Virus record (IMG/VR): IMGVR_UViG_3300045988_140792
Span: 1 to 62,696 of that record
Reading direction: 5' to 3' (one strand)
Origin: a virus
DNA length: 62,696 nucleotides
Shown here: positions 1 to 57,839 of the stretch, one piece after another
Numbering within the stretch: position 1 is the first letter of the stretch
How the letters are laid out: each line of letters starts with the position of its first letter
Program-made: the position numbers and the translations under genes
The notes under the pieces: generated by a model
Databases searched by the model: none
What the model saw: the letters and a program-made list of their open reading frames with translations, nothing else
What the model was told of the DNA's origin: nothing

Positions 1-75
1 ATCTTTCCCCTGAAACCCCTATAAAAGAAAACAAACAAAGAAAAGAGAAAGCCCACCCCCAAACACAAAAAAAAG
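1..75. repeat. Terminal direct repeat identical to 62622..62696 (circular closure, or terminal redundancy of the assembly)
   Basis: The 75 nt at the window start match the last 75 nt base for base. An ORF reads through the junction in frame. Confidence 0.95.
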
Positions 76-4278: not shown

Positions 4279-4509
4279 ATGGACAGAATACAAAACGAAA
4301 TCAGTAAGCTTCGCCATGAGCAGCATTTGAGTGAAAGACTGCAAGCTGCCCAACTTCGACAGATAAAGCGTGAGCACGATGGCCTCCACAAGTGGATAAC
4401 CATCACCCCACGCCTCAAACTCCTCTGCCGAATAGACGAGCAAGGCAACCTCCTCCCAAAGGAGCTAGACCGCATTAAGAAAGTTAAACAAACATTAGGT
4501 ATCAAATAA
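4279..4509 (+). CDS. Hypothetical protein
   Basis: 76-aa ORF, tightly packed. Confidence 0.45.
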   Translation: MDRIQNEISKLRHEQHLSERLQAAQLRQIKREHDGLHKWITITPRLKLLCRIDEQGNLLPKELDRIKKVKQTLGIK

Positions 4510-4528: not shown

Positions 4529-4966
4529 ATGAACGCAGAAGCATTAAAGAAGTACATCGGTACAAAAGAGGTTATGGCTGCACCTATGGATGAAGCAACC
4601 GCAGTGGCTAAAGGTTTTGCTCGCAAGAACGAGGATAACCATGAATGGAGACCAGGTTTCCATGTTCGCTACAACAATCCGGATGGCAGTACCTACGATT
4701 CCTGGTCACCTGCTGATGTCTTCAACCAGTCTTACAAGGTTGCAGACGATTTCCATGACCGTCTCAACATTGAGCTCAACGATGTGACTGAGCGTTTTGT
4801 TAAGTTAGAAAAGTTCATGAACAAAGGGCTTACGGCTGTGTGTGAAAAGGTAGGCGATTATCAGGCATCTATTCTTGTAGCTCAGTATCATGCAATGAAG
4901 TTGTACAAAAGTTGCTTGGAAGAGCGCATCGAAGAGATTGAGAAACGTGAAGTGTGGAGAGGATAA
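4529..4966 (+). CDS. Hypothetical protein
   Basis: 145-aa ORF. Confidence 0.55.
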   Translation: MNAEALKKYIGTKEVMAAPMDEATAVAKGFARKNEDNHEWRPGFHVRYNNPDGSTYDSWSPADVFNQSYKVADDFHDRLNIELNDVTERFVKLEKFMNKGLTAVCEKVGDYQASILVAQYHAMKLYKSCLEERIEEIEKREVWRG

Positions 4967-4967
4967 C

Positions 4968-5558
4968 ATGAGTGAAGAATCAGCATTATCCTTTCGCAAG
5001 CTAGTTTCAGCTATGCGAACCACCGAAAAGGAGTATTGGGCACACCGAGATAAAAAAATGCTGCGCCAGTCCATCGAACTTGAAAAGCGTGTTGATGGCA
5101 TCATCATGAAGGCAGACGGAAATGATGTCCCTCAGAACGACAACGGCACATTCTTCCTTCTGGTGGCAGAACTTAGAGCCTCAACCATCCAATACTTCCA
5201 GGAGAAGAAGAAGGCACAGCCCGACAAGGAGCTGGTCAATACTCTCTTCAATACCATCAAGGAGAAAGAAGCCAAGCTAGATAAGATGCTCATCCGCCTC
5301 CAAGACGAACAGATAAAGAAAGATGGCTACAGCATCCACTACCAGGTGATGGAACGACTGCCAAGAGCACATCAAGCTCGCCCAGTCTTCAGTTCCATGG
5401 ATGAGCAACTTGCCAAGGTAGAGTTGGATGACCTCTACCGCCATCCCGACCCTCCTGGCACTATGTATTTCATGTGCAAGAAATACCTTGGCAAAGACGG
5501 CAAACCTCTATCAGAAGAAGAGGTAGACAAAATTATTAATAACAAATTAAATTCTTAA
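4968..5558 (+). CDS. Hypothetical protein
   Basis: The ORF is tracked from 4938. The ATG at 4968 (MSEESALSF) directly follows the upstream stop and is the more likely start. Confidence 0.55.
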   Translation: MSEESALSFRKLVSAMRTTEKEYWAHRDKKMLRQSIELEKRVDGIIMKADGNDVPQNDNGTFFLLVAELRASTIQYFQEKKKAQPDKELVNTLFNTIKEKEAKLDKMLIRLQDEQIKKDGYSIHYQVMERLPRAHQARPVFSSMDEQLAKVELDDLYRHPDPPGTMYFMCKKYLGKDGKPLSEEEVDKIINNKLNS

Positions 5559-6153: not shown

Positions 6154-6192
6154 TCACTGACAATTCTTGCGCAATTTGGTTCTCAACAAGCT

Positions 6193-6240
6193 AAGTTGCG
6201 CAAGTTATCACTTCTCTTCCGCACATTTCTCGTAACTTAG
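6193..6240 (+). promoter_or_regulatory. Late-type promoter: AAGTTGCGCAAGTTATCAC - N21 - TAACTTAG
   Basis: Same box and same 21-nt spacing as four minus-strand sites. A second TTGCGCAA core lies at 6176..6183. The gene start at 6277 is 36 nt downstream. Confidence 0.6.
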
Positions 6241-6276: not shown

Positions 6277-6612
6277 ATGAAAAAGTTGAAACGTTTCATC
6301 ATTTATCTCCGTCTCTGGTTCATCCGCAAGATGGGCTACACCCTCCCATCCCTCAGAGAAGCTACTAGCGTTGTGCCTGGAGAGTTCTACGACCTCTTCG
6401 GGCGCATAGTCCGGGCAGTACCCAACAAGGAATCCTCCACCCCACATGTTAAAGGCAACTTTGAGTATGAGGAAGTCCCAGAGCATTGCCTTAACTGCGA
6501 TTTGTTCAAAGAGCACATTCCTTGCTCCTTCAATCATCGTATGCCCAACGGCTGCGATATTTGCGACAATCATCATTTCGAAATCATCTGCATTAACAGA
6601 GGTAACATCTAA
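6277..6612 (+). CDS. Hypothetical protein (Cys/His-rich)
   Basis: 111-aa ORF, the first gene after the promoter at 6193..6240. Confidence 0.5.
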   Translation: MKKLKRFIIYLRLWFIRKMGYTLPSLREATSVVPGEFYDLFGRIVRAVPNKESSTPHVKGNFEYEEVPEHCLNCDLFKEHIPCSFNHRMPNGCDICDNHHFEIICINRGNI

Positions 6613-6618
6613 AGCATA

Positions 6619-7368
6619 ATGAATATGAAACAGCAGAAGTCAAATTACAAGCTCGACAAAAAAACTGGCCATCTTCTCGAAGTCCCTTCCAAGAAGCAAG
6701 TTCGTGAGCACGTAAAGAAGGTACGTGAGCAGACTAGCCAAGAGCCTCAGCAACCAATCACTGTGCATGAGACCCAAGCCGACAAGAATTTCAATAAGGT
6801 TCAGAAGGTTATCGACCGAATGCACGCCAAGGCGAAGCTCCCCGACTTCCTCCACATGGCACGCAAGAAGTTCCTTTCCACCGTCTGCGTTATCAACCAC
6901 CCAGGCAAGCAGCGTAGCCTCCTCCCCGACAAGAAAGGGCGTTATGTCATGCTCTGCCACCGTAAGATGGCAAAGGTCTTCACTGCCGATGTCTGCCTTC
7001 TTGTAAAGATTCAAAAGTCCACCATCGAGAAGCATGAATTGGCACCAGGTGGAGAAGAGATAACGGAGCATTGGCAAGATGGCAGCTGGAGCATCGTCCC
7101 ATGCAGAGTGGACAAAAGCAACTACACCACCATTCAGGAAGTCCGTCTTCGCCCATGGTTCTTTCTCCACCGCTATTGGTACGAGATAACCTTTGATGGC
7201 AGGGTAGAGCCAGCTATGATGCTGAATGATTACAACCTCAACCCTACCCTACGCAAGAAACATTTCTATGTCACCCGAGAATATGTAAAAGTACGTAACC
7301 AGGATGCCGAAAACGATTACTTCCGTTTCTGGCTCCACAAACCTACAGATTATGCAGAACGAAACTGA
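6619..7368 (+). CDS. Hypothetical protein
   Basis: 249-aa ORF. Confidence 0.6.
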   Translation: MNMKQQKSNYKLDKKTGHLLEVPSKKQVREHVKKVREQTSQEPQQPITVHETQADKNFNKVQKVIDRMHAKAKLPDFLHMARKKFLSTVCVINHPGKQRSLLPDKKGRYVMLCHRKMAKVFTADVCLLVKIQKSTIEKHELAPGGEEITEHWQDGSWSIVPCRVDKSNYTTIQEVRLRPWFFLHRYWYEITFDGRVEPAMMLNDYNLNPTLRKKHFYVTREYVKVRNQDAENDYFRFWLHKPTDYAERN

Positions 7369-7756
7369 TATATTTATCCTCAACCGTCCACGCCCTCAAA
7401 AGCGTGGACTCACCCTCAACAAGAATGGGCGCATCACCTTGCGTTCCTACCCTGTAAAGCTCTTGGGGCTACAGCGAGGCGACAAAATCGTATTCTTCTG
7501 TCTCGGCTCTCAGATGTATATCACCAAGTCCTCCTCGCTTCCTGATGCCATACCTCTCTATGGGCGCAAGGCACAACTTCATGGTTGCAGTGCTAGCACT
7601 GTCAAATGCCTCTTCCTCCACACCCTAGGCGTTCCACCTAACGCCCAAGAAATAGACTTGGTTGTCTCTGACCGTCTAGAGACCATCACCGTAGGCAACG
7701 ACACCCTACAGGCATTGGCTGTAGTCAATCGTGCAGACCCATCCCATTGCCGATAA
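7352..7756 (+). CDS. Hypothetical protein
   Basis: The ORF is tracked from 7304. The ATG at 7352 overlaps the upstream stop region and is the likelier start. Confidence 0.5.
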   Translation: MQNETDIFILNRPRPQKRGLTLNKNGRITLRSYPVKLLGLQRGDKIVFFCLGSQMYITKSSSLPDAIPLYGRKAQLHGCSASTVKCLFLHTLGVPPNAQEIDLVVSDRLETITVGNDTLQALAVVNRADPSHCR

Positions 7757-7793
7757 TTAAATATTAAACAATACACATTAAACATTAATAAAA

Positions 7794-10664
7794 ATGCAAC
7801 AATCAATCAGATACAAAGGTCTCAGCCTCACACCCGATGAAATGGCAGTAGAGAACGGTGCGCTATCCCTCTGTGGCAACCTAGAGCTGCACGATGGCGC
7901 ATTGCGCCCTGCCATCGTATCGGGCACACCTCTATCTCAGCCCCTCACCGTTAATGGTGAGGTGGCTAAGATATTGTATGTTCACGAAACAGGTAGTTAT
8001 CACCACCTCATAGCCATAGCCTCATCCTCCATTTATTGGTTCATGCAGGATGGCACGCTAGGCTCGTCCACCCCTATCAAGTCCTTCGACTACGAATCCA
8101 CCGTGCTTTCTATCGATTCCATCGGCAACACGCTCATCATTGTAGCTGCAGATGGGATTCACTATGCACTATGGGTGGATGGTGGCTATAAATATCTGCC
8201 ACAAAAGCCTCCATTCGTAGAAATCGCCTTTTCTATATCCGATGATTATCCAGAGAACTACAGTAATGGTGGAGTCGATGCAGAAGGAAGTGCAAATGGT
8301 TTTCTGGAAGCATTCCAGCAAACCACATACTCATGCAATGACGTTTTTGATAAGGTTAAAATATCGATGAATGAAATTTCTATCGGAAATGCTGAATGTC
8401 TCACAATTAAGGAAGACAAGCAATCGGACGTTACACAGAGCATCTATGCACTTGTCAATCGAACAAACAATCTTATTGCTCGTAAAGGTCGTTTTTATGC
8501 CAATTTCTTTGTAAGATATTGCTATAGAATGTTTGATGGTTCCATGATTATGCACTCATCGCCTGTATTCATCCCTGTACAGGTTCCAGATAGCTACATG
8601 GTGCTGTGTGCTAACGCATTTTCTTTAAATGTAACTGATGGTGTTATCAACACATCAGATGACTTTACCTTTCAACGCGAAGATGGAAAGAATAACACAT
8701 TCAAAGTACATATCACGAAGGCAGCATTTATTTATTATCCACGAAATGTAGATTTAAAATATACTATACTGGACGCAAAACGTGATGAACTTGAAGAATG
8801 GAAGGATGTCATCAAATCGGTAGATGTATTCATTACACCTCCTATTTCTAACGTTGACACATCTGAGAAAATTTCAAGTCTCAGAGTTGGACGAAAAAAT
8901 TATAAACTTGGGTATGGATTATTATCACTAACGTTTGTATCAAATAGCAACAAAATAGGAGACACTTCTGTGTATTTCCCATCACTTAGTGAAGATGCCT
9001 ATCGTAACAAATTAAAGAACACCTCTGCTTTCTACAAGGTCTGCTCGTTGAAACTATCAGATTTAGCAATTTGCTCAGCGAAGAAATTACCTGTTGACAA
9101 GAATGCAGTCTATCAGGTATCATTGCAGGAACAGATGAAGGATGATTATAAAACTCATAACTCGCTCTTCGCCCAAGGTGGTTATGTCTATAATCATCGT
9201 CTTAACCTGTATGGCATGAAAGAGACACTGTTTCAAGGATTCAATGGTAGTGTTATGCTACCTGGCCAATACATTCTTAAATACGATGATAGCACGGATA
9301 ACTTGAAGTATAGGTATAAAATCCAGAAAATTGTAGTTAGCCTCAACACCACTTCCGGAACGAAATATGTTGAAAGTAGCGACAGGTACTTCTCTCGTCA
9401 GGATATTGATGTCTTCATAATCAGCAATCTTGTCAAGTTCTATCCGGATTCCAGAGCTGATAAAATGGCTATCTTCTGCAAGGATTCTTCTGATAATGAC
9501 GTCATCTTCGTTTTCCCTCTTGAACAATGCGCTGAACTGAATGGAGCCATGCATATGGGAGATTTTACCGACAATTTCGAGCAATATAAGGTAGAGTCGT
9601 TTAATTATACGCTTGATGATGTAGTGGAACTGTCCAATAAGATTTACACCTCCGAGTCCGATAACGCCTTCTACTTCCCTCTGAACGGCATCAATACCGT
9701 GGGTATCGGCACCATCCTGGGCATAGCCTCAACCACAAGGGCACTCTCCCAAGGTCAGTTTGGTCAGTACCCTTTGATGGCTTTCTCCACCGATGGCATC
9801 TGGGCGATGGAAGTTTCTTCCCAAGGCACCTATAGCAGCATACACCCCATCAGTCGTGAGGTTTGCAGCAATCCGAAGTCCATCACTCAGCTAGACCAGT
9901 CCGTGCTCTTCGCCACCAATCGCTCCCTCAGTCGCATAGCTGAGTCACAAGTGGCTTCCATGTCCGATGTCTTGGATGGACCAGGCTTCAATATAGTGGG
10001 CAACCTTGGCAAGTTCCTCAACTTCTTCAATGATGCCGAAGGCGATGATGCCGCCACCAAGACCATCAAGGCACAGATGCGACAACTCATAGATCTCACC
10101 TCCTCGCCAATCGACTTCTTTCAGCGTTGCCAGGTTATCTACGATTACAAGAACTCTCGCATCTTCTGCCTAGATGTCAGCCAACTGTCCAAGGAAGCCT
10201 CAGCCGATACCGTAGCCCTCTGCTATTCCGTCAAGGATGAAGCCTGGAGCACCTTCCTCATCAAGAATGTGCTCACAGCCCTCAACTCCTACCCTCACCC
10301 ATACATTCAGTATCGAGACGGTAGCGTAATAGTTTTGGATAGCGGTTACGATTACGAGGATGATACCGAGTATCATGGCATCATAGTTACTCGTACCTTG
10401 AAGTTCGATGAGGAGAACGCTCCCGATGCCATCACAGGCTACATCCATTCCCTCACCTCTGGCACCGTGCCGGTCATGTGGCTGTATGGTAGCAACGATA
10501 ACCAAAATTGGCATTACCTAGGTCGCCTAGGTGGCATGAAGTCCAACTATATGTCCTCCCATAGCTATCGCTTCTTCCGCATAGCCCTCTATCTTAAGAT
10601 GAAGTCAATGAATCAGTACTTTGCCACTCGCCTCGAAGTTATCAGGCGTTTCAACAAGTTCTAG
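7794..10664 (+). CDS. Large (956 aa) virion/tail-associated protein candidate
   Basis: Long ORF behind a late-type promoter. The central part is AT-rich and mosaic. No enzymatic motif was recognised. Confidence 0.65.
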   Translation: MQQSIRYKGLSLTPDEMAVENGALSLCGNLELHDGALRPAIVSGTPLSQPLTVNGEVAKILYVHETGSYHHLIAIASSSIYWFMQDGTLGSSTPIKSFDYESTVLSIDSIGNTLIIVAADGIHYALWVDGGYKYLPQKPPFVEIAFSISDDYPENYSNGGVDAEGSANGFLEAFQQTTYSCNDVFDKVKISMNEISIGNAECLTIKEDKQSDVTQSIYALVNRTNNLIARKGRFYANFFVRYCYRMFDGSMIMHSSPVFIPVQVPDSYMVLCANAFSLNVTDGVINTSDDFTFQREDGKNNTFKVHITKAAFIYYPRNVDLKYTILDAKRDELEEWKDVIKSVDVFITPPISNVDTSEKISSLRVGRKNYKLGYGLLSLTFVSNSNKIGDTSVYFPSLSEDAYRNKLKNTSAFYKVCSLKLSDLAICSAKKLPVDKNAVYQVSLQEQMKDDYKTHNSLFAQGGYVYNHRLNLYGMKETLFQGFNGSVMLPGQYILKYDDSTDNLKYRYKIQKIVVSLNTTSGTKYVESSDRYFSRQDIDVFIISNLVKFYPDSRADKMAIFCKDSSDNDVIFVFPLEQCAELNGAMHMGDFTDNFEQYKVESFNYTLDDVVELSNKIYTSESDNAFYFPLNGINTVGIGTILGIASTTRALSQGQFGQYPLMAFSTDGIWAMEVSSQGTYSSIHPISREVCSNPKSITQLDQSVLFATNRSLSRIAESQVASMSDVLDGPGFNIVGNLGKFLNFFNDAEGDDAATKTIKAQMRQLIDLTSSPIDFFQRCQVIYDYKNSRIFCLDVSQLSKEASADTVALCYSVKDEAWSTFLIKNVLTALNSYPHPYIQYRDGSVIVLDSGYDYEDDTEYHGIIVTRTLKFDEENAPDAITGYIHSLTSGTVPVMWLYGSNDNQNWHYLGRLGGMKSNYMSSHSYRFFRIALYLKMKSMNQYFATRLEVIRRFNKF

Positions 10665-14103: not shown

Positions 14104-14151
14104 CAAATTTAAGCCATCATTCCCGATTCTCAGTGATAAGTTGCGCAACTT
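14104..14151 (-). promoter_or_regulatory. Late-type promoter (minus strand): AAGTTGCGCAACTTATCAC - N21 - TAAATTTG
   Basis: Palindrome at 14138..14151, -7 box at 14104..14111, gene start at 14071. Confidence 0.6.
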
Positions 14152-14296
14152 CATACGAAAAAAAGAGAACACAAGCCCTTTTTCCTTAGCCTGCATTCTC
14201 TTCTTCTGATAGTTTTCTTTTATATATCTCTAGGTGTTATGGAATCATTTCTAGAAGAGCAAATTGATTCTTCACTCTTCGTTCTTCACTCTTCAC

Positions 14297-16679: not shown

Positions 16680-16910
16680 AATTCCTAAAGAAATAAAAGT
16701 TGTACATTCTGTTTATACTCACATGTAACCGATTACGTGTGCAAAGTTAAGGAAAATAGGCTAAAGCAAAAATAACTCTGTCACAAAAACTTTTATTCTA
16801 TGAATATCAGCGTGTTAACGTGACATAAACCCATATCAAAACCATCGTATGTATATTTTCGCAAGAATATTGCGTATAATTTAAGGCAAAAATTGTGTGT
16901 TTTAGAGCAT

Positions 16911-16945
16911 AAAAAAGAGAGAAGCAATCTCTCGCCTCTCTCCTT
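16911..16945 (-). terminator. Rho-independent terminator candidate
   Basis: On the minus strand: GAGAGA-TTGCT-TCTCTC followed by T6, just after the stop of 16948..17322. Confidence 0.5.
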
Positions 16946-16947
16946 TC

Positions 16948-17322
16948 CTACTTGTTTCTTTTCAGTCTTTTCTTGATAAACTCTCTAACGTCCCATTTTT
17001 TGAAGAAATGAGAATGGTCCCCAGCGTTCCCCACGCTTTCCAGCTCCCCATCAGCGATAGCCCTTCTTAGGGTAGATTCGCTGATATGCGCCTCCTTCTT
17101 CACCTGCCCGGCAGTCATATAAGGATTCAGCATGAATGGAATCTGTTCACAAAGATTGTCCAAATCATCATCGCTCATACCGCAAGCCGTAACCTTCTCC
17201 CCATTCTTCTGCTGCTCTGCAGCCTTGAAGCAAGCATCGCTCATCGCCTTCAACGCATTTCCCAGGGTCTCATAATTCAACAATTTTTTCATAATTCTCC
17301 AATTTTCTCCGTTATTCTCCAA
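16948..17322 (-). CDS. Helix-turn-helix DNA-binding protein (excisionase/MerR-like HTH at the C-terminus)
   Basis: MTAGQVKKEAHISESTLRRAIADGELESV fits an HTH_17-like pattern. Confidence 0.5.
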   Translation of the reverse strand: MENNGENWRIMKKLLNYETLGNALKAMSDACFKAAEQQKNGEKVTACGMSDDDLDNLCEQIPFMLNPYMTAGQVKKEAHISESTLRRAIADGELESVGNAGDHSHFFKKWDVREFIKKRLKRNK

Positions 17323-17358
17323 AAATCTCTATTATTCTCCTATTATCTCCAGCAATCT

Positions 17359-17865
17359 CTATGCGAAGAATTTTCTACCCATCTTCGTCTTATTGATAAT
17401 CATATCAGAAAAGCCATAGAGATAAAACATACCTGTTACAATCATAACAGTATAGCAAGAATCAACCATAGCATTGGTAGTGTACCAGCTCCACTCCACT
17501 ATATGTGCAGCATTAATGCCGAAGAAATAGAAGAAAGGAATACGATACCACCAGCACAAAAAGAAAAATCTACTAGCCAAAATTGTCACCATCGGAAGAA
17601 TATAAACCATAAAATAAATGAAGAGATAACATGGCAAATTTTCTTCGTGAGGAACAAACATTTCTTTGGGATGATGAGAAAAGTCCCAGATACCATAAGC
17701 GTGAAAGAACATAAGGCTTATGGGCATATACTTGCAGTACCACCGGAAGAACTTTAAGATTCTTCTGGAATATCTGTTGCCATGCTTCATAAGCATTCCC
17801 ATCAGTTCTGTAACATCTACGTCCTTTATCAACCGTTGGACTTCGGCTTCTTGTTCTTGTGTCAT
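17359..17865 (-). CDS. Multi-pass membrane protein
   Basis: 168 aa with 4-5 hydrophobic helices in an AT-rich setting. Confidence 0.5.
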   Translation of the reverse strand: MTQEQEAEVQRLIKDVDVTELMGMLMKHGNRYSRRILKFFRWYCKYMPISLMFFHAYGIWDFSHHPKEMFVPHEENLPCYLFIYFMVYILPMVTILASRFFFLCWWYRIPFFYFFGINAAHIVEWSWYTTNAMVDSCYTVMIVTGMFYLYGFSDMIINKTKMGRKFFA

Positions 17866-18041
17866 AGAAAAACCTCCTTTTGTCTATAGTTAATTGTTCA
17901 TATGTCCTTATAAAATTAAAATCTGTGGCAAAATTACAACTTTTTTGCTCAAACCAATTCATTTTGAGCAAAATTTTAAAGTTAAACTTTACTAAAGTAA
18001 CAATCTGTAAGCAACAATCGCAAATTCATCATATATAAAAT

Positions 18042-27349: not shown

Positions 27350-27397
27350 CTAAATTAAGCAAAATTTCGCATTACTTTGTGATAAGTTCTGCATCTT
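27350..27397 (-). promoter_or_regulatory. Late-type promoter with a degenerate left half: AAGATGCAGAACTTATCAC - N21 - TAATTTAG
   Basis: Same 21-nt spacing as the other sites. Gene start at 27323. Confidence 0.5.
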
Positions 27398-27417
27398 GAT
27401 GAATTAATTTTGTTGGC

Positions 27418-27852
27418 ATGAAACATCTAAATTCCATATCCGAAATTTACCTTAAAAGAGACCAGGAAATGTTTCTGCTCTTTCGTAAGGCCAAGAGGAT
27501 GGTAGAATATCCTACCACCATGGCTAAGATATGCGATTACATCGCCAAGATGCCAGCCTCTTGTTATTATCTCGCTGATAGCACAGCCTATCGGTATGTA
27601 TGCAAACGCATCAAGGGGGAAAAGCCTAAGTTCGGCAAATACCAAGCCATGAAGGAAAAGCTATTCGAAGCCTTCTATCAGGATTTCTTGCGCCTCCGTC
27701 AGATGGAACAATACAAGGAATACAACACCAAGCATCTTGTGTATGTGTGCCTAGACCTTCCTGCGCCCAACATGGGGATGGCACCTCGCTACATACAGAT
27801 GAAAATCAACAATTATTTCCGCAATAAGAAAACATCATTCATCACTCGATAA
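27418..27852 (+). CDS. Hypothetical protein
   Basis: 144-aa ORF, first gene of the plus-strand terminase block. Confidence 0.5.
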   Translation: MKHLNSISEIYLKRDQEMFLLFRKAKRMVEYPTTMAKICDYIAKMPASCYYLADSTAYRYVCKRIKGEKPKFGKYQAMKEKLFEAFYQDFLRLRQMEQYKEYNTKHLVYVCLDLPAPNMGMAPRYIQMKINNYFRNKKTSFITR

Positions 27853-27866
27853 AACTCTCATTCATT

Positions 27867-28346
27867 ATGCGTACATTATATATAACACTCCTCATCGTCC
27901 TCCTGATGGCTTTCATCATTCCGCTGCACGCCAATCTTGCTGTGTCGCCATCCTCGCCTCAATACTCCCATTTCGTTTACATGTTCGGTCATGCCAACTT
28001 CATCCATTGGGCTGTTAATGCCTGGTGCCTCCTTATGGTGCATCGTCAGTTTCGCATCCATCGTGTGCTGGCTTCGTGGCTTGCCTCCGTTGGTCTCTCC
28101 TTCCTTTATTATCCGTCCCTCCCAGTCTTGGGCGCATCGGTCATTATATCTTTCTTCATGGGCTTCACCGCTCCGTGGCTCTACAGGCGAAAACGCTTAG
28201 CCTTCTGGCAGATGCTCATCATCCTAGTGATTGGATGCCTCCTCCCTCACATAGCTGGCATCTATCACCTCATCCTCTTTGCCATCGGATTCATCTATGC
28301 CAAGGCAGAAGGATTCATTCGCAAATCTCAAAAACTCAACATTTAA
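27867..28346 (+). CDS. Rhomboid-like intramembrane serine protease candidate (minimal, 159 aa)
   Basis: Three rhomboid motifs occur in the correct order within hydrophobic helices: H42-x4-H47-x3-N51 (GHANFIHWAVN), GxSx (LGASVII, Ser91) and H128 in PHIAGIYHLILFAIG (compare GlpG AHIAGLAVG). Confidence 0.5.
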   Translation: MRTLYITLLIVLLMAFIIPLHANLAVSPSSPQYSHFVYMFGHANFIHWAVNAWCLLMVHRQFRIHRVLASWLASVGLSFLYYPSLPVLGASVIISFFMGFTAPWLYRRKRLAFWQMLIILVIGCLLPHIAGIYHLILFAIGFIYAKAEGFIRKSQKLNI

Positions 28347-28378
28347 CATTCAACACATAACATTATTATATATAACGG

Positions 28379-30568
28379 ATGCCAGTAGCAAAATCCACAT
28401 TAAAGGTACGACCTCAGCAGCAACTGTCCGAAGAGAAACTCAACGAGATTCTAGAGGAGAATAAGAGAAGGCTCACAAGCCTCCTCGCTACTTATCGTCC
28501 CATTACAGGAGAGAATGCCCCTGGTCTTCGCTTCGAGTGCGTCATCACAGATTTCCTGAATGGAAAGAAACTTTGGCTTCCTGTAGAGATGTTGAAGGAA
28601 AAGAAGTTCTGCGCCATCATCAAGTGCGGTTCTATCTCTGCCTTCTGCGAGAAGTACATGGCAGACCTGGATCAAGAAAAGGCTCGCGATGCAGTATTCC
28701 GCTATCTCATCCGTCTGCGCTGTAAGCACGATTTTTATTTCTTCGCCTATGCCTATGCCCGAATCAAGAATAAGGATGGTGGCGATGATATACCTTTCCT
28801 TCTCAACCATGCACAGATAGGTCTCACCAAGGATTTCGAACGGCAACGCCTTCATGGTGAGCTGCACAGTATTTTGATTATCCTCTTGAAGTGTCGCCAA
28901 TGGGGAGGTTCTACTGATACCGAGGTTTACATGTTCTGGATTCAGATGTTCTGGAAGACCAACTGGAATAGCAACATCATCGGTCACCAGTCTTCATCTG
29001 CTACCCAGGTGTTCGATATGTACGAGAAATTGGCGAATGCCATCCCTACATGGCTCTACTATGAGATTGGAGAGACTTTCAAGGAAGATTCTCGCAAACT
29101 CCGCACATCAAGCACTCAGAACAATATCAAGTACCTCATCCCTCGCTCCTGCAAGATACAGACTGGTTCGGCTCGTAACCCTGAGTCCTGCCGTTCTGCC
29201 GATGCAGCTATGGCTCACATCACCGAGGAAGCCTTTTTCCCTAACACTACAGAGTGGACTCCACAGAAGGTTGTCAATGCCGCAATCTCGCCTATCAATG
29301 TTACGAGACCTTACACCTTCATCGTGCGAGAGTCTACCCCTAACGGGCGTGAAAATGAGTTTCATGATGAATGGGTGCGTGCCAACTCTTTCGACAAGGA
29401 CGGCAATCGCCTTTCCATCTATACCCCTTACTTCGTTCCATGGTTCCACATCGAGAAGTATATCCTTCCTTTCAAGTCTGAGCAAGAAAAGATTGATTTC
29501 GTTCTTTGGCTCTACAAGAATCGTGAGGATGAGCAATATCATGGCTCTTACTTCTGGTGGCTTTGGGAAATCAAGGGTGCAACCCTCGAAGGCATCCATT
29601 GGTATGTGAATGAGTGCAAGAAGTACAGCGACTTGGATGGTATGCGCCAAGAGTACCCTTCCGATGACGTGGAAGCCTTCCTCTTCTCCGGCACTACCGT
29701 CTTCGACCCTTACAAGTTGAAGGAGATGGAAGAGGATTGCAAGGGCATCGAGCCTATCATGGTGGGCGACATCGAGGGAGATTCCTACGATGCTGCCGAC
29801 CCTGCTTGCATGAACAACATCCGTTTCGTAGAGCGTGCTGGTGGACCTCTCAAAGTTTGGGCTGGACCCGACAACTCCGAGATTGTCAAGCATCGTTACG
29901 TTGTAGCCTGCGATATTGGTGGTTCACATAAAACCTCCGACTTCTCCGACATCGTGGTGCTCGACCGCTACGATGAAATCTATGGTGGTGTTCCCGAGAT
30001 TGTAGCCGAATGGCATGGTCACTGCGATGCCGACCAACTCGCCATGCGTTGCGCCCAGATTGCTCATTTCTTTAATGATGCCTTCCTGGTTATCGAGAAC
30101 AATACCGCTTACTCTCGTATGAATAATACCGAGGGCAACCAGTCTGAGCTGTTCTTCCCTATTCTCATCCCTCTCTACCACAATCTATATAGTGCGTCAC
30201 AGTCCAAGTTGAAGAAGGTGAAGAACATTGAGACCAAATGGGGATTCAATACTAACAAGGCTACCAAGGTGGCAGTAGTGAAGACCATGGCACGCATCAT
30301 CCGAGACGGTGGCTATATGGAGCGAGAACTTGCAGCCATTGATGAATGCACCTACTTCCTCTACTACAAGCAGAACGACTGCTACGGTGCCATTGCAGGC
30401 AAGCACGATGACCGTGTTATGGCTAGAGCTATCGCCCTCTACGTGGAGAAGGATATGCCAGCACCTGAAATCGTTCCATTCCGTTCAAAGGCAGAGATAG
30501 AGCGTGAACGCCTCCGCAACCGCCCACCTGTAGTAGCCGAGCTGTCAGGCATAGGTGGTGGCAGCTAG
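28379..30568 (+). CDS. terL: Terminase large subunit
   Basis: 729 aa. ATPase region LKCRQWGGST. Nuclease-domain acidic motifs VVACDIGG...SDFSDIVVLD and GKHDDRVMA. Confidence 0.85.
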   Translation: MPVAKSTLKVRPQQQLSEEKLNEILEENKRRLTSLLATYRPITGENAPGLRFECVITDFLNGKKLWLPVEMLKEKKFCAIIKCGSISAFCEKYMADLDQEKARDAVFRYLIRLRCKHDFYFFAYAYARIKNKDGGDDIPFLLNHAQIGLTKDFERQRLHGELHSILIILLKCRQWGGSTDTEVYMFWIQMFWKTNWNSNIIGHQSSSATQVFDMYEKLANAIPTWLYYEIGETFKEDSRKLRTSSTQNNIKYLIPRSCKIQTGSARNPESCRSADAAMAHITEEAFFPNTTEWTPQKVVNAAISPINVTRPYTFIVRESTPNGRENEFHDEWVRANSFDKDGNRLSIYTPYFVPWFHIEKYILPFKSEQEKIDFVLWLYKNREDEQYHGSYFWWLWEIKGATLEGIHWYVNECKKYSDLDGMRQEYPSDDVEAFLFSGTTVFDPYKLKEMEEDCKGIEPIMVGDIEGDSYDAADPACMNNIRFVERAGGPLKVWAGPDNSEIVKHRYVVACDIGGSHKTSDFSDIVVLDRYDEIYGGVPEIVAEWHGHCDADQLAMRCAQIAHFFNDAFLVIENNTAYSRMNNTEGNQSELFFPILIPLYHNLYSASQSKLKKVKNIETKWGFNTNKATKVAVVKTMARIIRDGGYMERELAAIDECTYFLYYKQNDCYGAIAGKHDDRVMARAIALYVEKDMPAPEIVPFRSKAEIERERLRNRPPVVAELSGIGGGS

Positions 30569-30582
30569 CCCTCTCCCTGAGC

Positions 30583-30613
30583 CACCGTTCCAGGCGATTC
30601 CATCGCCTGTCCA
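30583..30613 (+). terminator. Conserved stem-loop element, copy C (CAGGCGAT-TCC-ATCGCCTG)
   Basis: Stem at 30591..30598 / 30602..30609, directly after the terL stop. Confidence 0.45.
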
Positions 30614-30644
30614 TATAAGTTAACAATTAAAAGTAAAAAGAAAA

Positions 30645-31112
30645 ATGAAAAAAGTTTATCAAAATCATCTTCGCAAGATGCTGATAGCCATCTACCAGCC
30701 AGTCATCACTCGTATCGAACTCTTCCGCTCCACTCGTATGTGGCAGAAGGGAGTGAAAGCCACCCTTGCTAAGTACAAGGAAGGTGGTGCGCCTCGCTTC
30801 TACATGCTCTACGACCAGTCTCACAAGGATTGGGCGATTATGACCTACGACCCCAACCGCAAGGGTATGCTCGCCTACCGTCGCCTAGTCCAGCTTGGCA
30901 AGTGGAAGGCAACACGCTACTTCAAGAACGTGAAAGACATCAAGGCTGCCTCCTACTACTACACCCCGTCAAAATGGGGAGCAATCGGCTGCGATGCCGA
31001 CAACAAGGTTAGAGCCAAGAAGTTGAAGCAGTGGCAAGACTATTACATGTATCGTGTTTCCGTCCCGATGGAAAAGCTACGCTCCTACAAGAAGAAATAT
31101 GGTATAGCTTAA
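30645..31112 (+). CDS. Hypothetical protein (basic)
   Basis: 155-aa ORF. Confidence 0.5.
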   Translation: MKKVYQNHLRKMLIAIYQPVITRIELFRSTRMWQKGVKATLAKYKEGGAPRFYMLYDQSHKDWAIMTYDPNRKGMLAYRRLVQLGKWKATRYFKNVKDIKAASYYYTPSKWGAIGCDADNKVRAKKLKQWQDYYMYRVSVPMEKLRSYKKKYGIA

Positions 31113-33321: not shown

Positions 33322-33403
33322 CAAAAATACCGCCTTTTTCTCACTTCTTAGTGATAAGTTGCGCAACTTAACATTACTTTCTCATATTTTCCCCTTATTT
33401 TTG
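33322..33403. promoter_or_regulatory. Bidirectional late-type promoter pair centred on the perfect palindrome AAGTTGCGCAACTT (33356..33369)
   Basis: -7 boxes TATTTTTG lie exactly 26 nt from each palindrome edge: minus strand 33322..33329, plus strand 33396..33403. Confidence 0.6.
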
Positions 33404-33451: not shown

Positions 33452-33922
33452 ATGAGTAAATCAATCAATGTTCACGAAGCCTGCGTCATCACCAAGGATG
33501 ATAAAGGCAACCTCTCCCTGGTTGGCAAGGCGAAAGAAGCCCTCACCACCTTGAAGAAGAATAAGGTTTCCGTCTGCATTCTTCTCTGTGACAACAAGAA
33601 GGAGGATGTGGAGAAGTTTCTTAACGACAATAATGTACCATTCTCCTCTATCTACACCAAGGAAGAGACCGACAAGGATGGCAACACAAAGCATGTTGAC
33701 CCACCAAAGGCAGATGTCACCATCATGCCAAGCTCCAAGGTTATCACCCTTCGAGACGATTGGCAGTGGTGCTTGGATGATATTGCTCACCGTCTTTGGG
33801 GCGAAAAGAAGAAAGAAGCTCCAAAGAGTGAACAGCAGAGCATGGACGAAGCCATGAAGCGTTACATAGATTGGGCGAAGCCTAAGAAGGCAGAAGCCAA
33901 CGGACCCGCCCAGATAGGTTAG
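33452..33922 (+). CDS. Hypothetical protein
   Basis: The likely start MSKSINV at 33452 lies 48 nt after the plus-strand -7 box. The tracked ORF starts at 33359. Confidence 0.55.
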   Translation: MSKSINVHEACVITKDDKGNLSLVGKAKEALTTLKKNKVSVCILLCDNKKEDVEKFLNDNNVPFSSIYTKEETDKDGNTKHVDPPKADVTIMPSSKVITLRDDWQWCLDDIAHRLWGEKKKEAPKSEQQSMDEAMKRYIDWAKPKKAEANGPAQIG

Positions 33923-34170: not shown

Positions 34171-37100
34171 CTACTCCATTCCGTTTAATGTTTCAATCAG
34201 CTCCTTTCTGGTCTTGCGAATCTCCACCATTTTGGCGGCATCGTTCTGACCGTCCATTTGCTTCTTAGCCTTATTCATCTTCCTTCTTGCAGCAGAGATA
34301 GCCTTTCTAGCTGCAAACAGTCGCTTGTTGGTCTTGCTGTTCTTGAAGGCATTAGCCTTCGCCTTGTCAACATCCTTCAAGCGTAGATACTCATCGTAGG
34401 TCTCCATCGTTCCGTTCCATACAGCCTGTATTCTCCAGTCCTCTGTCACATCCTCCGATTTCGCCTTCATCAAGTACTTGTTTTCAGCCTTTTCCATCTC
34501 CTTCAAATCATCCTCCCCATTCAGATAGCTCTGCACCATGTCCAGTGCCTCCTTCTGGGTGAATGCCTTATACTCGCTTTGAGAGAGGAATTTCTTCATC
34601 TTCTGGCGCATCTTCTTCTTTTCCGTGATACTCTTAGCCTCATCGAAGCGTTCGCTAGCCACCTGTAGAGAGGTAACACCGTCTTGCATTTCAGATGCCT
34701 CCAACGCCTTCACAGAAGAGATTGCAGCCTTCAACTGTTCTTCTGGGTCGATACCATTCTGTACACAAGCGTTGTAAGTCATGGCTAAACCTTGCTTATC
34801 CTCTGACATAATAAAGGTTTTGAAGTAATCCTGCGCCTTATATCTAGAGAATCCCTTGGAAGAAGGGAATACTAAATCAAGCATCTTAAACTCCTTATCC
34901 TTTTGAGTCGGAACTGCAAACGGCACATAGTAAGAAGCTAGTTTCGGAATCAAGCCAAGATTCTCGCCATACTTTCTCTGCATTTCCTTATCTGCATAAT
35001 CAGGCGACTTAAACCAATCGTTGGCATCTAATATACTTCTTAGCAGTGGACTTGCCTTTCCGTACATGCGCCTAACCATAGGGCCAGGAAACGCAAAGTT
35101 GTCTTTGGCATCAAAGAACAACTCAGGTATCTCTCTAAATTGCTTTCCATGACGGATATACATTTCTGTTCCATCAGCATAGCGACCCATAAAGATTTTG
35201 CTCTGTTGCCCTAGGCTATTGCCACGCATCAGGTAGTCATACCAGTGCATACCATCAGGATATGCTAATTCGTATGGTGACTTGTAGCTAGGATTTGTCT
35301 TACGTATCTCATCAGCCTTCTCCTTCTGCTTTTCTTCGTCCCATGCTCTCATTGCAGCATTAACCAGCTGTGACAAGCCTTCATATCCTATCATGAAGCC
35401 GACACCATAGCAAAGAAGGCCAGATTTTGAACGCGACAATCTCAAATAGTCTTCTTTGGTCATTTCACCTCTTCCAAGAACATGCTTGTAATATTCCCAG
35501 AAATTCTTGATGCTTGCTTCATTCCAGATTGAGCCATAGCCGAAGATAGACAATGCGTGTCTTGTTGTTGAGATAAGCCAGTCCTTTGAGAGGAATATGA
35601 AATCAAGAATCGTTTGCATCTTTTTGGAAATGCCAAGCACATCGAAGTGCTGACCTCCAAACATATCATTCACGAATTGACCATCTTCATCCAATGCCTT
35701 ATTCAACATATCTTCATCCCAATTCAATTTCTTGGCTCTTTCCATTGTACGCTCGGCACGTAGCTGATAAGTTGCCAGTTTCAAACCATCATGCAGATAG
35801 CTCCACAAGGCAACATCAAGACCCTTCTGTGACATCTTTAACAACTCCGTTGCAACCTCCAAAGGGAAAGTAACAGAAGAACCTGCCTTCATAGCTACAT
35901 TACCATCCACTAACTTGGAATGAAGTTTTGCCACATAAGAATGTACCTTCTCGTAGAGATTTTCAATATCTGCTGTTGCATAGTCAGAAGTAGAGCCAAA
36001 CTTTACCAAATGTTTTGCAGCCTCCTTAAATGCCTCTGGATTAGCAAAGGCTGGAAGTTGGTGAGTCTTAGCTGTGTCCGTAATCAGATACTTCATAAAG
36101 TAAGCCATAGCCTTTGCAGGTCCAAACTCAGCAGAGTTCTGAACAGCATACACCTCGGTTAATGCACCAGCATGGAAACCAGAAAAGCCTAACTCCAAAG
36201 TCTTTGCTATACTCATGGCATTCTTGACACCTTTCAGTACTTTTGGTATTTTAACAGTGCCAAATGCAGCATTAAACCAATCCTCGGCAGATTTGTTGAA
36301 TATCTTACCTTGGTTGTAAACCCAGACGGTATTAATGCCCGGAACAACGTAAGGAGTATATTTGTTCTCATCTACCATCATTTCTTTTGGCTGAATACTG
36401 GACAATAATGGCATGCTACTGATTATCTCACCATCCTTATTTCGCTCTATCACATTAATTCCACTCAATTCTTGAAGGAACGTCTTGTTTGCGAATGCCT
36501 CAATGTTACTTTGGCTGTAGTAAGCCAACAAGTCTGTTATGTCAGTTGTCTTAGGCACAAGTCCTGCATCAACACCTTCCATATAGGTACTTACCTTTCG
36601 AAGCTTTTCATTAGGACTCTTTGTGCGCTGTCTGCCTTCCACCAAATCTGCATAAGCCTTATCATCGCTTTTCTCCTTGTCCCATCGATGATTAACATAG
36701 TCTGCTGTATAGCCTATATCATCCCTTACGGTATGACTATCTTTCAACCAAGTGAATGTTTTATCATACCATTCTCTAATCTTACCAAGAAGAGACTGCA
36801 TTTCTTCACTCAGATTCTTATATTCGATACCTTTTGGCACAATTCGCTTCAAGACAACAGGAAGTACATGCTCGGCTAAGAAGTCCGTGCCATCAATAGG
36901 AACAAAACCTTCCTCACCATTATGATTTTCATTGATAGCTTTTGCCATCTTGCTAGCAACTTCCGTCATGGAAGGTACATCATCATAGACAATAGTTTCC
37001 TTACCATTCTTCTCTACCTTGTGGCTATTAGCAGCCAAATCTCGCAACTCTTCTGTAAACGGTTGAATAGCATCAACATCTTCTGCGGTTACATGAATAT

Positions 37101-40100
37101 GTCCATTCTCAAAAGCACCAACAGCATTCAACTCATTTGCAATATCACGCATTCTTCTAGGTGCCTCTATAATATAAGGTATAGCCTCAGCCATTCTCTT
37201 TGCCTGAGTCTTTGGAGTTTTGCCTGTAACTGTTTCTTTGACTACATCAGCAATAGCATCAGCCTTTCTTCCTAGATAGCTAGCATTAGCCATCTTGTTA
37301 AGTTCATGCTTTACGCTATTAATAAATATAGCATCGGTTGCAGATGCACTCTCTATATTCTTTCTACGATAGATAACAGCATCATGTACACTACGAGCTG
37401 CACCTTCCTTAGTTACATCGGTGCTAGTCACCTCTGCCAAGTCCTGCATCACTCGCTGCTCCAGTGCATCAGCCTTCGGATTGGTCTCTGCCGGATAAAT
37501 CTTACCCTCATACAAGTCTAGGTCGGCATCGTTCTGCTCGTTCAGTTCGTGTCTAGTCAGCCAGTCCTCATACTTCTGTCTAGCCTCGTCCTGCTTCTGC
37601 TTCTCGAAGGAGAACATATCAGGCATAGGATTTTCCGTGTCGCCCATGGCATCGTTCCACTTCTCCCACTCCTTATAGCGGTTCATAAAGGCATCATCGC
37701 TCTCACCTTCCTTGCGCTCTGGGCGAAGTGGCATTTCCTCGCCTCTCAGTCCATGGCTATCACGCCACTCCTTGTTAAGGCGTTCCCATTCCTTCTTGCC
37801 CTCGGCATCCTTGTCGAAGTCATAGAACATCGGTGGCTCTGGGTCTTCCTTATCCTCTCGGGCTTCCTTCCATCGCTTCCATTCCATCACTCGCTTCATG
37901 TATTGGATGGTACTCTCGCCCTTCTTCTGTCTCGGCTTGCCCTTGCCAGCACCATCAGCTAGCGCATCCTTGATTTCGGCATTGCTAGCCTGTGCCATCA
38001 TAGCCTCCTGCTTCTCCTTCGGCATATTGTCCCAAACGTGCAAAGCCTTACCTGCCTTCATCAGATAATATCTCAAATCCTTATCATTGAGCAAACCAGG
38101 AACACGGATGCCCAATTTCTTAAGCACCTTGATGAGATAATGCTTTATCTTAGTCCAAAGAGAAAAGTCCTCCGCTGTAGTTGGACCCTCCTCTGCAAGA
38201 TGGGCAATATACTCCTGCGTACCTACATTGATGCGGTCAGGATTGCTCCAACCTGGATCATACTTGTTGGCGAAGTCGAGAATCTTGCCCCTCGTCTTCT
38301 TATCTACAGACTTATATACGAAGTCCGCAAACTTTCTCACGCCCTGCTCACCACCAAGCAGCACTTCCATACCCTCATGTCCTATCTTCTCATGGAAGAC
38401 GGTTCTCTGAGCCTCATCGGCATCAGCACAGTTAGGCAGATAAACATGAACCGTGTGAGTAGTAGGGTCATACCATCCGGTAGCCCCATTCTTCACATCA
38501 CTCAGATAAGCATCCGGCACCTCATCTACAGAAGTATAAACCGTAGCCTCAGCACCACCCAGTTTGTTGGCAGTGTTCACTACCCGGTCGCTCACTTGTT
38601 TCTGCTTGTCTGCATCCCAGGTATTCTTAAAGATAGAGCTGCCAAGTCGTGCCAGTACATTTCTACCGGATAAGTCATCCTTATTCAGCAGAGGAGCAAT
38701 CACGCCCTTGGTCAACTGCACCGGAATACCATTGCCAATGATGGTATGCGCCAAAGATTCCGTCTTAGGCAACAGATAGTCATCGCCCAGTCCGGTAATC
38801 CTAGCCAATACCCTGCCATCAGCACGCAACACCTTTCCACCCGGCATGATGATTACGTCTCCGCTTTTAGTTCTCAACGTTGGCAGAATCTCATCACCAT
38901 AGGCATGAGGTATCTTTCCATCGGCATAGGCACTGCCCATTACATAAAGAGGCTTCTCCACCTTCTGCCAGTCGATTCCGTCAGCCTTCAGTCTGGCATC
39001 CATCCATGGTGCCACACCGTTTTTCTTCTCCGTCAGGGTAGGAAGAATATCCTCCACAGCCTCTAGCCATCCACCCTTGCGTGGTTGCTTCTTAGGCTTC
39101 TCCGGCAGTTCTCCGTCCTTCACGGCTCTAACAATCAGTCGCTCCCTGCTGGTATAACCACCAAAATCTGCGGCATTATAAACGTCAGCATCCCATTTGT
39201 AGCCGTTCTTATCCAGTGCCTGGGTGATAATCTTCATCGCCTCAGAGTCCTTGTAACCCTTCACGTTCTCGATAGTCACCACTCGCGGTTTCACGGCATC
39301 AATGAAGTCGGCAGTACTCTTGGCAGTCTCCTTGTCAAGCTCCACCTCGCCCCCATTGCTCTTAGCCTGAGAGTAGTTCTTGCATACAGGCGAAGCATGG
39401 AAATACTCCACCTCGCCATCAATATGCTTCACCAGTTCCTTAGGGTCCACGTCTCTCACGTCAGCCGTAACAATATGCTGTCCGAAGTTGTTGCGATACA
39501 CACCGCTTATCTTCCGGTCATACTCCACAGCCACCACTGGGTCGATGATGCCCTTCAATCCCTCTTCTACCAGTCCACCACCACTAAAGTAGGTGCCGGC
39601 CTTCATCAGCGAATCAGGATGCTTCTGCAACTTCTGCTCCAAGATAGGAGATTTCACGATACCCTTACTGCCCCATTCCTTGAAAGCGTCCTTGGTCATT
39701 TTCACGTCCACGAACTGAGCCTGAGGAAACTCCTTCTTCAACTCGTTCATCTGAGCCAGGAACTTCTCCTTAGTCTCAGGAGCCTGCTGGCCCGACTCAT
39801 CGGTAGTAATAGGCACACCCAGTTTAACCAACTCCCTCAACTGATTAGGAGTAACCACGTTCCAAGGAATAGCCAGCCCTGTACCATCCAGCTGCTCTGC
39901 GATACTCTCAGCAACCTCAGAATCAGGAACCACTCTCACCGCCTTTCTCCAGCGAGACAACATCACCGACCTCTGTCTATCCTTCGGCAACAAACCATTG
40001 ACGGAACCCGAATGCCAAGGCACAAGTCCCACGGCATCCTTTGCACCCTCAGCACGATAGCCACTGGTCTTCTCGCTCTCCGGAATCTCCCATTCCACAA

Positions 40101-53222: not shown

Positions 53223-53304
53223 CTAAAGTAATGCGTTTTTCTCACCTATCTGTGATAAGTTGCGCAACTTGAACAACAAGTTTCGTTATTTTTCACTATA
53301 TTTG
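53223..53304. promoter_or_regulatory. Bidirectional late-type promoter pair centred on AAGTTGCGCAACTT (53257..53270)
   Basis: The minus-strand box TACTTTAG (53223..53230) and the plus-strand box TATATTTG (53297..53304) each lie 26 nt from a palindrome edge. Confidence 0.6.
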
Positions 53305-57685: not shown

Positions 57686-57688
57686 AAC

Positions 57689-57785
57689 ATCAATCCTTTT
57701 TAATTGTTAATATCAATCAATATAGCTTATTACTTCTTAAATAATCAATCACTTTTGATTATCTTCAAGCTAAAATGATTATCTT
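57689..57785. promoter_or_regulatory. Operator-like repeats in the switch region: 3x ATCAATC(A) and 2x TGATTATCTT
   Basis: ATCAATC at 57689, 57712 and 57744. TGATTATC at 57756 and 57776, the latter two overlapping the -33 and -7 elements of the early promoter. Confidence 0.5.
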
Positions 57786-57787
57786 TG
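57754..57787 (+). promoter_or_regulatory. Early promoter with a canonical Bacteroidota architecture: TTTG - N22 - TATCTTTG
   Basis: -33 TTTG at 57754..57757 and -7 TAnnTTTG at 57780..57787. The first early gene starts at 57840. Confidence 0.6.
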
Positions 57788-57839
57788 CACCGTAAAGTTA
57801 GTAAATAAATAAATAAATACCAAATAAAATTGAAGAAAA

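Follow-up and report, generated by a model that had tools for sequence, protein, structure and literature searches.

Phage-Specific Elements at Promoters

The middle and late promoters of phage Mu keep a -10-type element, have a poor upstream element or none, and carry a dyad site for Mor or C that overlaps the -35 region and is centred at about -43.5. The late promoters of P2, 186, and P4 are served by the zinc-finger activators Ogr, B, and Delta, with the P2 dyad, TGT-N12-ACA, centred near -55. T4 middle promoters contain the MotA box, a 9-bp asymmetric element centred at -30 that acts together with sigma appropriation by AsiA. At enterobacterial divergent promoters CRP binds a symmetric dimer site, TGTGA-N6-TCACA. 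The primary-sigma promoter of the Bacteroidota consists of a -33 TTTG and a -7 TAnnTTTG, the TTTG preceding the -7 element by 19-21 nt, and in Bacteroides promoters TAnnTTTG spans about -12 to -5. This report concerns a 19-bp box, AAGTTGCGCAAsTTATCAC, found upstream of -7-type elements in the IMG/VR record IMGVR_UViG_3300045988_140792, a stretch of 62,696 nucleotides that is analysed whole (the window) and is the genome of a temperate Segatella copri phage. The box most likely marks a set of operons that would be switched on together by a phage protein. It is moderately probable that it defines a class of activator-dependent promoters for the host primary-sigma (sigma-A) RNA polymerase, served by a phage-encoded dimeric activator.

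The Box and Its Distance from the -7 Element

Five sites were proposed in the initial annotation of this genome, and all five are present. The box is exact at 6193-6211 (+), 14133-14151 (-), 33351-33369 (-), and 53252-53270 (-), which are sites 1, 2, 4, and 5, and has three mismatches at 27379-27397 (-), site 3; dinucleotide-preserving shuffles gave no match (0/100), and the chance expectation is 0. At all five the box is followed, exactly 21 nt downstream as had been claimed, by a -7 box (TAACTTAG, TAAATTTG, TAATTTAG, TATTTTTG, and TACTTTAG at sites 1-5), and the distances from the -7 box to the first ATG of the operon, 36, 32, 26, 17, and 28 nt in the same order, agree with the 17-36 nt originally given. 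The probability that five -7 boxes share a fixed offset by chance is about 3e-13, a value based on the frequency of the -7 motif in intergenic DNA. A mismatch scan in which the box was tied to a downstream TAnnTT returned seven sites with five or fewer mismatches, and every other site had at least seven.

The downstream elements had been matched to TAnnTTTG. All five fit the looser form TAnnTT(T/A)G, but the full TAnnTTTG is present at only two of them, the other three ending in TTAG; across the seven promoters described below the element is found in each case, as TAnnTTTG in four and as TAnnTTAG in three. The replacement of the -33 TTTG is borne out: where TTTG would stand, 19-21 nt upstream of the -7 box, there is instead ATCAC, the end of the box, or on the divergent side of bidirectional sites AACAT or GAACA. 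The 14-bp palindrome within the box had been called perfect, which is true at three sites only, since at site 1 (AAGTTGCGCAAGTT) 12 of 14 positions are symmetric and site 3 is degenerate. The best-kept part of the box is its promoter-proximal arm, TTATCAC, and the conserved core is TTGCGCAAnnTATCA, with TAnnTT 23 nt further on. Because TAnnTTTG is taken to span about -12 to -5, the box would lie at about -52 to -34 and the centre of the palindrome near -45.5. Judged from sequence, this genome also has promoters with an upstream TTTG, from which the box promoters are distinct. A candidate early promoter at 57754..57787 (+), facing the early operon that starts at 57840, consists of TTTG (57754-57757), 22 nt, and TATCTTTG (57780-57787), and overlaps repeats of the ATAATCAAT type.

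A palindrome with a GCGC centre could also be a repeat that has no part in transcription, such as a hairpin or cruciform, a packaging or recombination site, an iteron, or a target for the C5 methylases that this phage encodes both as a free-standing gene (60644-61930) and within a giant protein. Explanations of this kind are extremely improbable. The single-strand folding energy of the palindrome is no better than that of shuffled sequences (z -1.0 to +0.2), for which reason a hairpin or terminator was rejected; GCGC occurs 86 times in the window, so that the box is not a special methylation target, and no support was found for a link to the methylases through GCGC. Every copy stands at the head of an operon in phase with a -7 box, and the possible iterons of this genome are elsewhere, in the replication-initiator gene at the circular junction.

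Sites Shared by Predicted Divergent Promoters

Although five promoters were implied at the outset, the five sites actually serve seven. On either side of the palindromes at 33356-33369 and 53257-53270 a -7 box lies at exactly 26 nt, the distance on the box side being the sum of the 5 nt of ATCAC and the 21-nt offset; the probability of the two distal -7 boxes by chance is about 1e-4. At the first palindrome the predicted promoter P4 (-7 box TATTTTTG at 33322..33329, -) precedes the portal gene, and its divergent partner P4div (-7 box TATTTTTG at 33396..33403, +) precedes the open reading frame (ORF) 33452-33922. At the second, P5 (-7 box TACTTTAG at 53223..53230, -) heads the operon from 53194 to 34171, which includes a polyvalent protein of 5740 aa, and P5div (-7 box TATATTTG at 53297..53304, +) precedes ORF 53344-53727. 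In related phages 64 of 101 palindromes lie midway between divergent core promoters, and another 36 have a promoter on the ATCAC side and correspond to the unidirectional types P1 and P2 described below. The portal-side site of one sub-lineage, GTGATAATTTGCGCAGATTATCAC, is a 24-bp dyad symmetric at 22 of 24 positions, and on this evidence the full form of the putative operator is GTGATAAnTTGCGCAAnTTATCAC, most sites having the inner palindrome and the promoter-proximal outer arm only. The presence in some relatives of a TTATCAC arm on both sides of the bidirectional pair fits a symmetric dimer.

The same symmetry bears on a different reading of the box, in which polymerase itself would recognise TTATCAC / TTGCGCAA in place of the -33 element after a phage protein had remodelled or replaced region 4 of the host sigma factor, as AsiA/MotA do in T4, or because such a protein acts as a sigma-like specificity subunit. 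The dyad symmetry, the palindrome common to divergent promoters, and the 24-bp form fit a symmetric dimer better than an oriented -35-like element, and TTATC ends 23 nt from the -7 box, 2-4 nt beyond the usual place of TTTG. No sigma-70 family domain and no AsiA- or MotA-like protein was detected in any ORF. A change of specificity would nevertheless account for the strong conservation of TTATCA(C), which lies beside the expected -33 position and survives at the degenerate site 3, and for the exact distance to the -7 box, and the family-restricted candidate proteins discussed below have no DNA-binding fold recognised by Foldseek. Overall this reading is considered doubtful.

Operons Headed by the Sites

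As had been noted, every site precedes the first gene of a virion, lysis, or polyvalent-protein operon; the rule is broken, however, by the terminase operon (see Proposed Mechanism). P1 (6193..6240, +) consists of the box AAGTTGCGCAAGTTATCAC (6193-6211), the 21-nt spacer, and the -7 box TAACTTAG (6233-6240), and heads the operon 6277-10664; both box and spacing are kept in its orthologues. An auxiliary half-site, tcTTGCGCAAtttgg, lies upstream at 6164..6178 (+), where it immediately follows the DUF4494 stop codon. Its core, TTGCGCAA at 6167-6174, is 29 bp upstream of the P1 core and would be centred near -74.5; relatives have it 28-29 bp upstream in the variants TTGCGCAT, ATGCGCAA, and TGGCGCAA, and one sub-lineage is without it.

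P2 (14104..14151, -) has its box at 14133-14151 and its -7 box, TAAATTTG, at 14104-14111, and heads the lysis operon (ATG 14071), in which a holin and a GH19 endolysin are recognised by family matches. A terminator-like hairpin with a T-run (14158..14200, -) ends 6 nt before the P2 box and closes the upstream tail-gene operon. This hairpin was recognised by reading the sequence, a simple terminator scan not having listed it, and in the divergent relative L251 the pairing of the stem is kept despite changes on both arms (GGGAACGCA...TGCGTTCCC). Since P2 comes directly after the hairpin, it would begin a separate transcription unit. P3 (27350..27397, -) combines the degenerate box AAGATGCAGAACTTATCAC (27379-27397) with the -7 box TAATTTAG (27350-27357), ahead of an operon (ATG 27323) that encodes a scaffold-like protein and a capsid protein of SU10 type by family match. 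Two divergent relatives have an intact core, GAGTTGCGCAAAATATCAA, at the same place, indicating that site 3 is a genuine member of the set that has decayed in this lineage.

Conservation and Distribution of the Box

The exact box is found in at least 119 IMG/VR stretches. Among the matches listed, a -7-type box starting with TA lies 21 nt downstream in 118 of 118 readable stretches, those in which the box is far enough from the end of the locus, and 32 forms of the spacer follow exact boxes. Orthologous promoters were gathered through their downstream or neighbouring proteins, to avoid selection by the box itself. Selection by the portal protein gave 80 loci with 44 unique sequences upstream, in which the box and the two -7 boxes are nearly fixed, the commonest base reaching at least 90% at nearly every position, and the spacers and outer flanks vary and contain insertions and deletions. 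TAnnTT stands exactly 21 nt past the box in every true orthologue of P1-P5 and of both divergent promoters, the unique sequences numbering about 18 for P1, 22 for P2 (22/22 with this spacing), 7 for P3, 23 for P4, and 26 for P4div. The most divergent relatives, in which the candidate proteins are 55-60% identical, have the boxes GAGTTGCGCAACTTATCAA, GATTTGCGCAACTTATCAG, GAGTTGCGCAAATTATCAC, and AAGTTGCGCAAATTATCGT.

A search of 185,579 species genomes for the exact box gave 15 matches. Thirteen lie inside relatives of this phage, mostly in Segatella copri, and the remaining two (Pontibacter and Ktedonobacterales), a number expected by chance, have neither phage genes nor a -7 box. The box thus appears specific to this phage family, which argues for a factor encoded by the phage. 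Were a host transcription factor to bind the box instead, the late genes would follow a host signal, and the absence of an identified phage regulator from the family scans would be explained; yet the exact box heads no host gene and is confined to the phage relatives and the two chance-compatible matches. As only exact matches were sought, degenerate host sites are possible, and a host factor is regarded as very unlikely.

The fixed spacing also bears on a role in repression, whereby the box would silence structural and lysis promoters that are otherwise constitutive, either in the lysogen or early in infection. Repressor sites of this kind usually overlap core elements and need no fixed helical phase, whereas the box keeps an exact distance at all seven promoters and across the family even as the spacer drifts. 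Several of the -7 boxes also deviate from the consensus, with TTAG here and TTTA in relatives, as expected of promoters in need of help. Palindromes beside core promoters are, on the other side, typical operators; the phage is temperate, with an integrase and a CI-like protein that has two HTH_3 domains; and a promoter without a -33 element could still fire. The -7 element carries most of the promoter strength in Bacteroidota. In the immunity region (57686-57839), where ATAATCAAT-type repeats are found, there is no copy of the box at six or fewer mismatches, and the box does not behave as a CI/Cro-type operator in this respect. Repression is, on balance, an unlikely function.

Candidate Regulators

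That no regulator could be recognised was stated at the outset, and scans of the ORFs agree: no protein of a known regulator family was found among all ORFs, and there is no member of the sigma, Mor/C, Ogr/Delta, MotA/AsiA, or RinA/ArpU families, or of similar ones, when all ORFs are compared with Pfam and many with PHROGs and NCBIfam. No ORF has a Sigma70 domain in Pfam. Three genes found in all box-bearing relatives, where they adjoin P1, encode candidate factors, and we infer from synteny and phyletic pattern that one of them may bind the box. Candidate A (4279..4509, +) is a basic, family-restricted protein of 76 aa, syntenic with the box and present in all divergent box-bearing relatives, with 76 homologues among 5.8 billion proteins. 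Its AlphaFold model (pLDDT 89) has a long helix, a beta-hairpin, and a helix, and gave no match to the PDB in Foldseek at E <= 0.001 (best E 0.9). Candidate B (4968..5558, +), a family-restricted protein of 196 aa with only 81 homologues, is encoded by the second-to-last gene of the early operon. It is modelled (pLDDT 91) as a four-helix bundle with a small beta-beta-alpha-beta domain, again with no Foldseek match at E <= 0.001 in the PDB or BFVD (best E 0.16 and 0.03). The restricted distribution of A and B matches that of the box. Candidate C (6277..6612, +), of 111 aa, is encoded by the first gene behind P1, a position that makes positive feedback possible; an alignment of eight orthologues reveals a conserved CxxC...C...H...C motif, and the protein has no family match and none in the phage collection.

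Other proteins were considered as the activator or ligand of the box and rejected. The DUF4494 protein, encoded directly upstream of P1 (5563-6153, +) and by position the natural choice, was set aside as lead candidate; it belongs to a very large family (2562 clusters at 50% identity) that occurs in many unrelated phages, where another gene comes next and there is no promoter; its nearly invariant residues are mostly acidic (E76, E103, D126, E127, E132, and D163), and the Bacteroides phage BF1-TP2 has a copy without a comparable box regulon. DUF4494 is phage-associated and has an internal tandem repeat; no solved structure was found by sequence, and literature searches found no paper that mentions it. 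The repeats in the intergenic region of the CI-like protein (57143-57685) are different, being of the ATAATCAAT type, and this repressor is therefore not an obvious ligand of the box. The HTH_17 protein (16948-17322), encoded in a low-GC island that has an inverted repeat and a promoter of its own, is likelier to be a local regulator. The crAss001_48-domain protein (4529-4966) is missing from the box-bearing relative L251. Covariation between box variants and the candidate proteins gave no discrimination, the box core being unchanged down to 55-60% protein identity.

A wider rule of the form TTATC-N23-TAnnTTTG was also rejected, since it gave only two matches in BF1-TP2. The equivalent divergent intergenic region of that phage, a distant relative (PQ571263.1; L120/L121), at about 60996-61060, contains two overlapping divergent promoters, each with GATTTTTAT(C/T)GTTA 19 nt upstream of the -7 box. 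This is a symmetric but different design, and the element has no repeat elsewhere in that genome.

Proposed Mechanism

In the activator mechanism proposed for these promoters, each would retain the Bacteroidota -7 element (TAnnTTTG) and lack the -33 TTTG, which would be replaced at about -52 to -34 by a dyad operator (full form GTGATAAnTTGCGCAAnTTATCAC, core TTGCGCAAnnTATCA). A phage protein, probably a dimer, would bind this operator about 45 bp upstream of the start and recruit or stabilise RNA polymerase on a weak core promoter. With a dyad site, a single bound factor could serve two divergent promoters, as predicted at 33.3 and 53.2 kb. The regulon would comprise seven promoters, those of the 6277-10664 operon, the lysis genes, the scaffold/capsid/tail operon, the portal gene, the polyvalent-protein operon, and two small divergent genes. 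Expression of the factor would be from the early rightward operon (57840 via the circular junction to 6153), with 4968-5558 and/or 4279-4509 as the best candidates and 6277-6612, with positive feedback, as an alternative. As the downstream element is the Bacteroidota housekeeping -7 motif, the host primary-sigma holoenzyme is the likely polymerase.

A phage dimeric activator is preferred because the distance is strict while the spacer drifts, the dyad is shared, the -7 boxes are imperfect, and there is no -33 element; these four features are as expected of an activator that touches polymerase from one face of the helix and unlike those of a repressor operator. As a promoter signature the box is conserved and confined to the family, and it almost certainly unites the virion, lysis, and injected-protein operons under common regulation. 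Its geometry, conservation, and family restriction, with the identity of the downstream genes, partly support the original description of a late, activator-type promoter class, and it is by inference that transcription would start at the sites, that the promoters would be late, that the protein would activate rather than repress, and that a given protein would bind.

Several points weigh against this reading. A repressor could equally use a fixed operator position. The box cannot be linked to any protein whose fold is recognisably DNA-binding, and fold searches with candidates A and B matched no solved structure and returned neither MotA nor AsiA. To call the P1 operon (6277-10664) late, when no function is assigned to it, is an assumption. 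Terminase is usually a late function, yet its operon (27418-31112) departs from the 21-nt geometry: its -7 box, TAATTTTG at 27405-27412 (+), stands only 7 nt off the distal end of the degenerate P3 box, with 5 nt between it and the ATG (27418). This layout is conserved among relatives, and the mRNA of the operon may be leaderless.

A more specific form of the proposal is held tentatively, as possible rather than probable. Here a new kind of phage transcription factor (4968-5558 and/or 4279-4509) would replace recognition of the -33 element, by activation or by sigma appropriation, and one dimer would fire two divergent promoters.

Other Features of the Phage Genome

A 75-bp direct repeat at the ends of the window (1-75 and 62622-62696) marks the assembly as circular, with a length of about 62.6 kb. 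Exact copies of the box in the chromosome of Segatella copri G8 (NZ_CP146523.1) and in S. copri metagenome-assembled genomes identify S. copri as the host. No close GenBank phage was found by DNA comparison; the portal is 26-31% identical to the portals of three Bacteroides phages (BF1-TP2, BS-TP4, and BKO1-TP3). An integrase (53851-55317) is recognised by family match, and the gene for the CI-like protein with two HTH_3 domains (57143-57685) is divergent to the early operon, which runs rightward from 57840 across the circular junction to 6153 (+). A 461-aa ORF (61976 across the junction to 740) encodes the replication initiator, whose C-terminal part matches O-like / DnaD-like families and whose middle has repeats at the peptide and DNA levels, possible iterons of an origin. 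The portal is of P22 type. The 5740-aa polyvalent protein (34171-51393, -) has InPase, ART-PolyVal, LPD3, PBECR5, and C5 DNA-methylase domains, PBECR5 being a barnase/EndoU-like nuclease, and is probably an injected counter-defence protein.

In the immunity region, at 57700-57790, repeats of ATCAATCA / ATAATCAAT...TTGATTAT overlap the candidate early promoter at its -33 TTTG and are presumed to be repressor operators unrelated to the late box. A 99-aa early protein (59373-59672, +) resembles an excisionase/AlpA-type winged helix by eye in its C-terminal stretch (ITQAKAFDTFGRRNVERWVKEGKVKVF...); no family model scored above threshold, and the product may be an excisionase. The low-GC island (0.38-0.41) at 16700-18000 holds a membrane-like ORF (17359-17865, -) and the weak HTH_17 / excisionase-like ORF (16948-17322, -) behind their own -7 box (17929-17936, -), with the inverted repeat TTTTGCTCAAA (17943-17953) / TTTGAGCAAAA (17963-17973), and looks like a self-regulated moron. 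Some 4-bp palindromes are strongly avoided over the whole window (GATC 6 vs 233 expected, CGCG 8 vs 143, and GGCC 22 vs 143), with GCGC mildly depleted (86 vs 143 expected).

Significance

Temperate phages of gut Bacteroidota are abundant, and the timing of their gene expression is almost undescribed; for none of them did literature searches turn up a described late promoter or late activator. The motif yields a testable regulon of seven promoters, a cultured lysogen (S. copri G8 carries a relative), and three candidate proteins. A confirmed factor would give the limited genetic toolbox of Prevotella/Segatella an orthogonal, phage-controlled promoter/activator pair and would show how a -7/-33 polymerase can be activated from the -45 position. 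Should the factor prove to be of the new kind, this would be the first late-gene switch described for a temperate Bacteroidota phage, and the importance of the finding would rise if a candidate of unknown fold is the factor. If the activator is an ordinary one, little would be gained beyond a useful rule for annotating this phage family.

Comparison with Known Systems

The box promoters resemble the canonical Bacteroidota promoter in having the -7 element at all seven, and differ from it in having ATCAC, on the primary side, in the place of TTTG. They are unlike the promoters of alternative or phage sigma factors, in that the downstream element is the housekeeping -7 motif and the ORFs contain no Sigma70 domain. 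With T4 middle promoters they have in common a housekeeping downstream element that is retained and, in place of the upstream element, a phage-specific box set at a constant distance. Unlike the MotA box, however, the element is a dyad of 19-24 bp at about -52 to -34 that can serve two directions, and family scans found no MotA or AsiA homologue. The divergent pairs are like those served by CRP, with a single symmetric site equidistant from two core promoters; the half-sites here are instead GTGA-N16-TCAC, no host sites were found, and the box has no associated Crp-family protein, the only trace being a sub-threshold HTH_Crp_2 match in the CI-like protein.

In their apparent working, the closest systems would be the Mor/C promoters of Mu and the Ogr promoters of P2, and the shared feature is a dyad at a fixed upstream position before weak core promoters, seen here as five dyads and seven promoters at exactly 21/26 nt. 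As with P2 Ogr, a dyad upstream of a weak promoter is common to several late operons, and where the P2 activator is a small phage protein, a small protein with a conserved Cys/His motif is present here (6277-6612), the role of which is a guess and for which no sequence similarity to any family was detected. As in Mu, the downstream element is kept, the dyad activator site, centred in the low -40s in Mu and predicted here at about -45.5, is shared by several late operons, and the activator is proposed to come from the preceding temporal class. The phage differs from Mu in the unrelated sequence of the site, and it is not a member of the Mu or P2 families, because their defining proteins are absent, Mor/C among them. 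A further difference from Mu is the Bacteroidota sigma-A polymerase with its -7/-33 architecture, and two of the sites face both directions. The type of system is well known; what is new is the want of a recognisable activator, the host lineage, and the bidirectional use of the sites.

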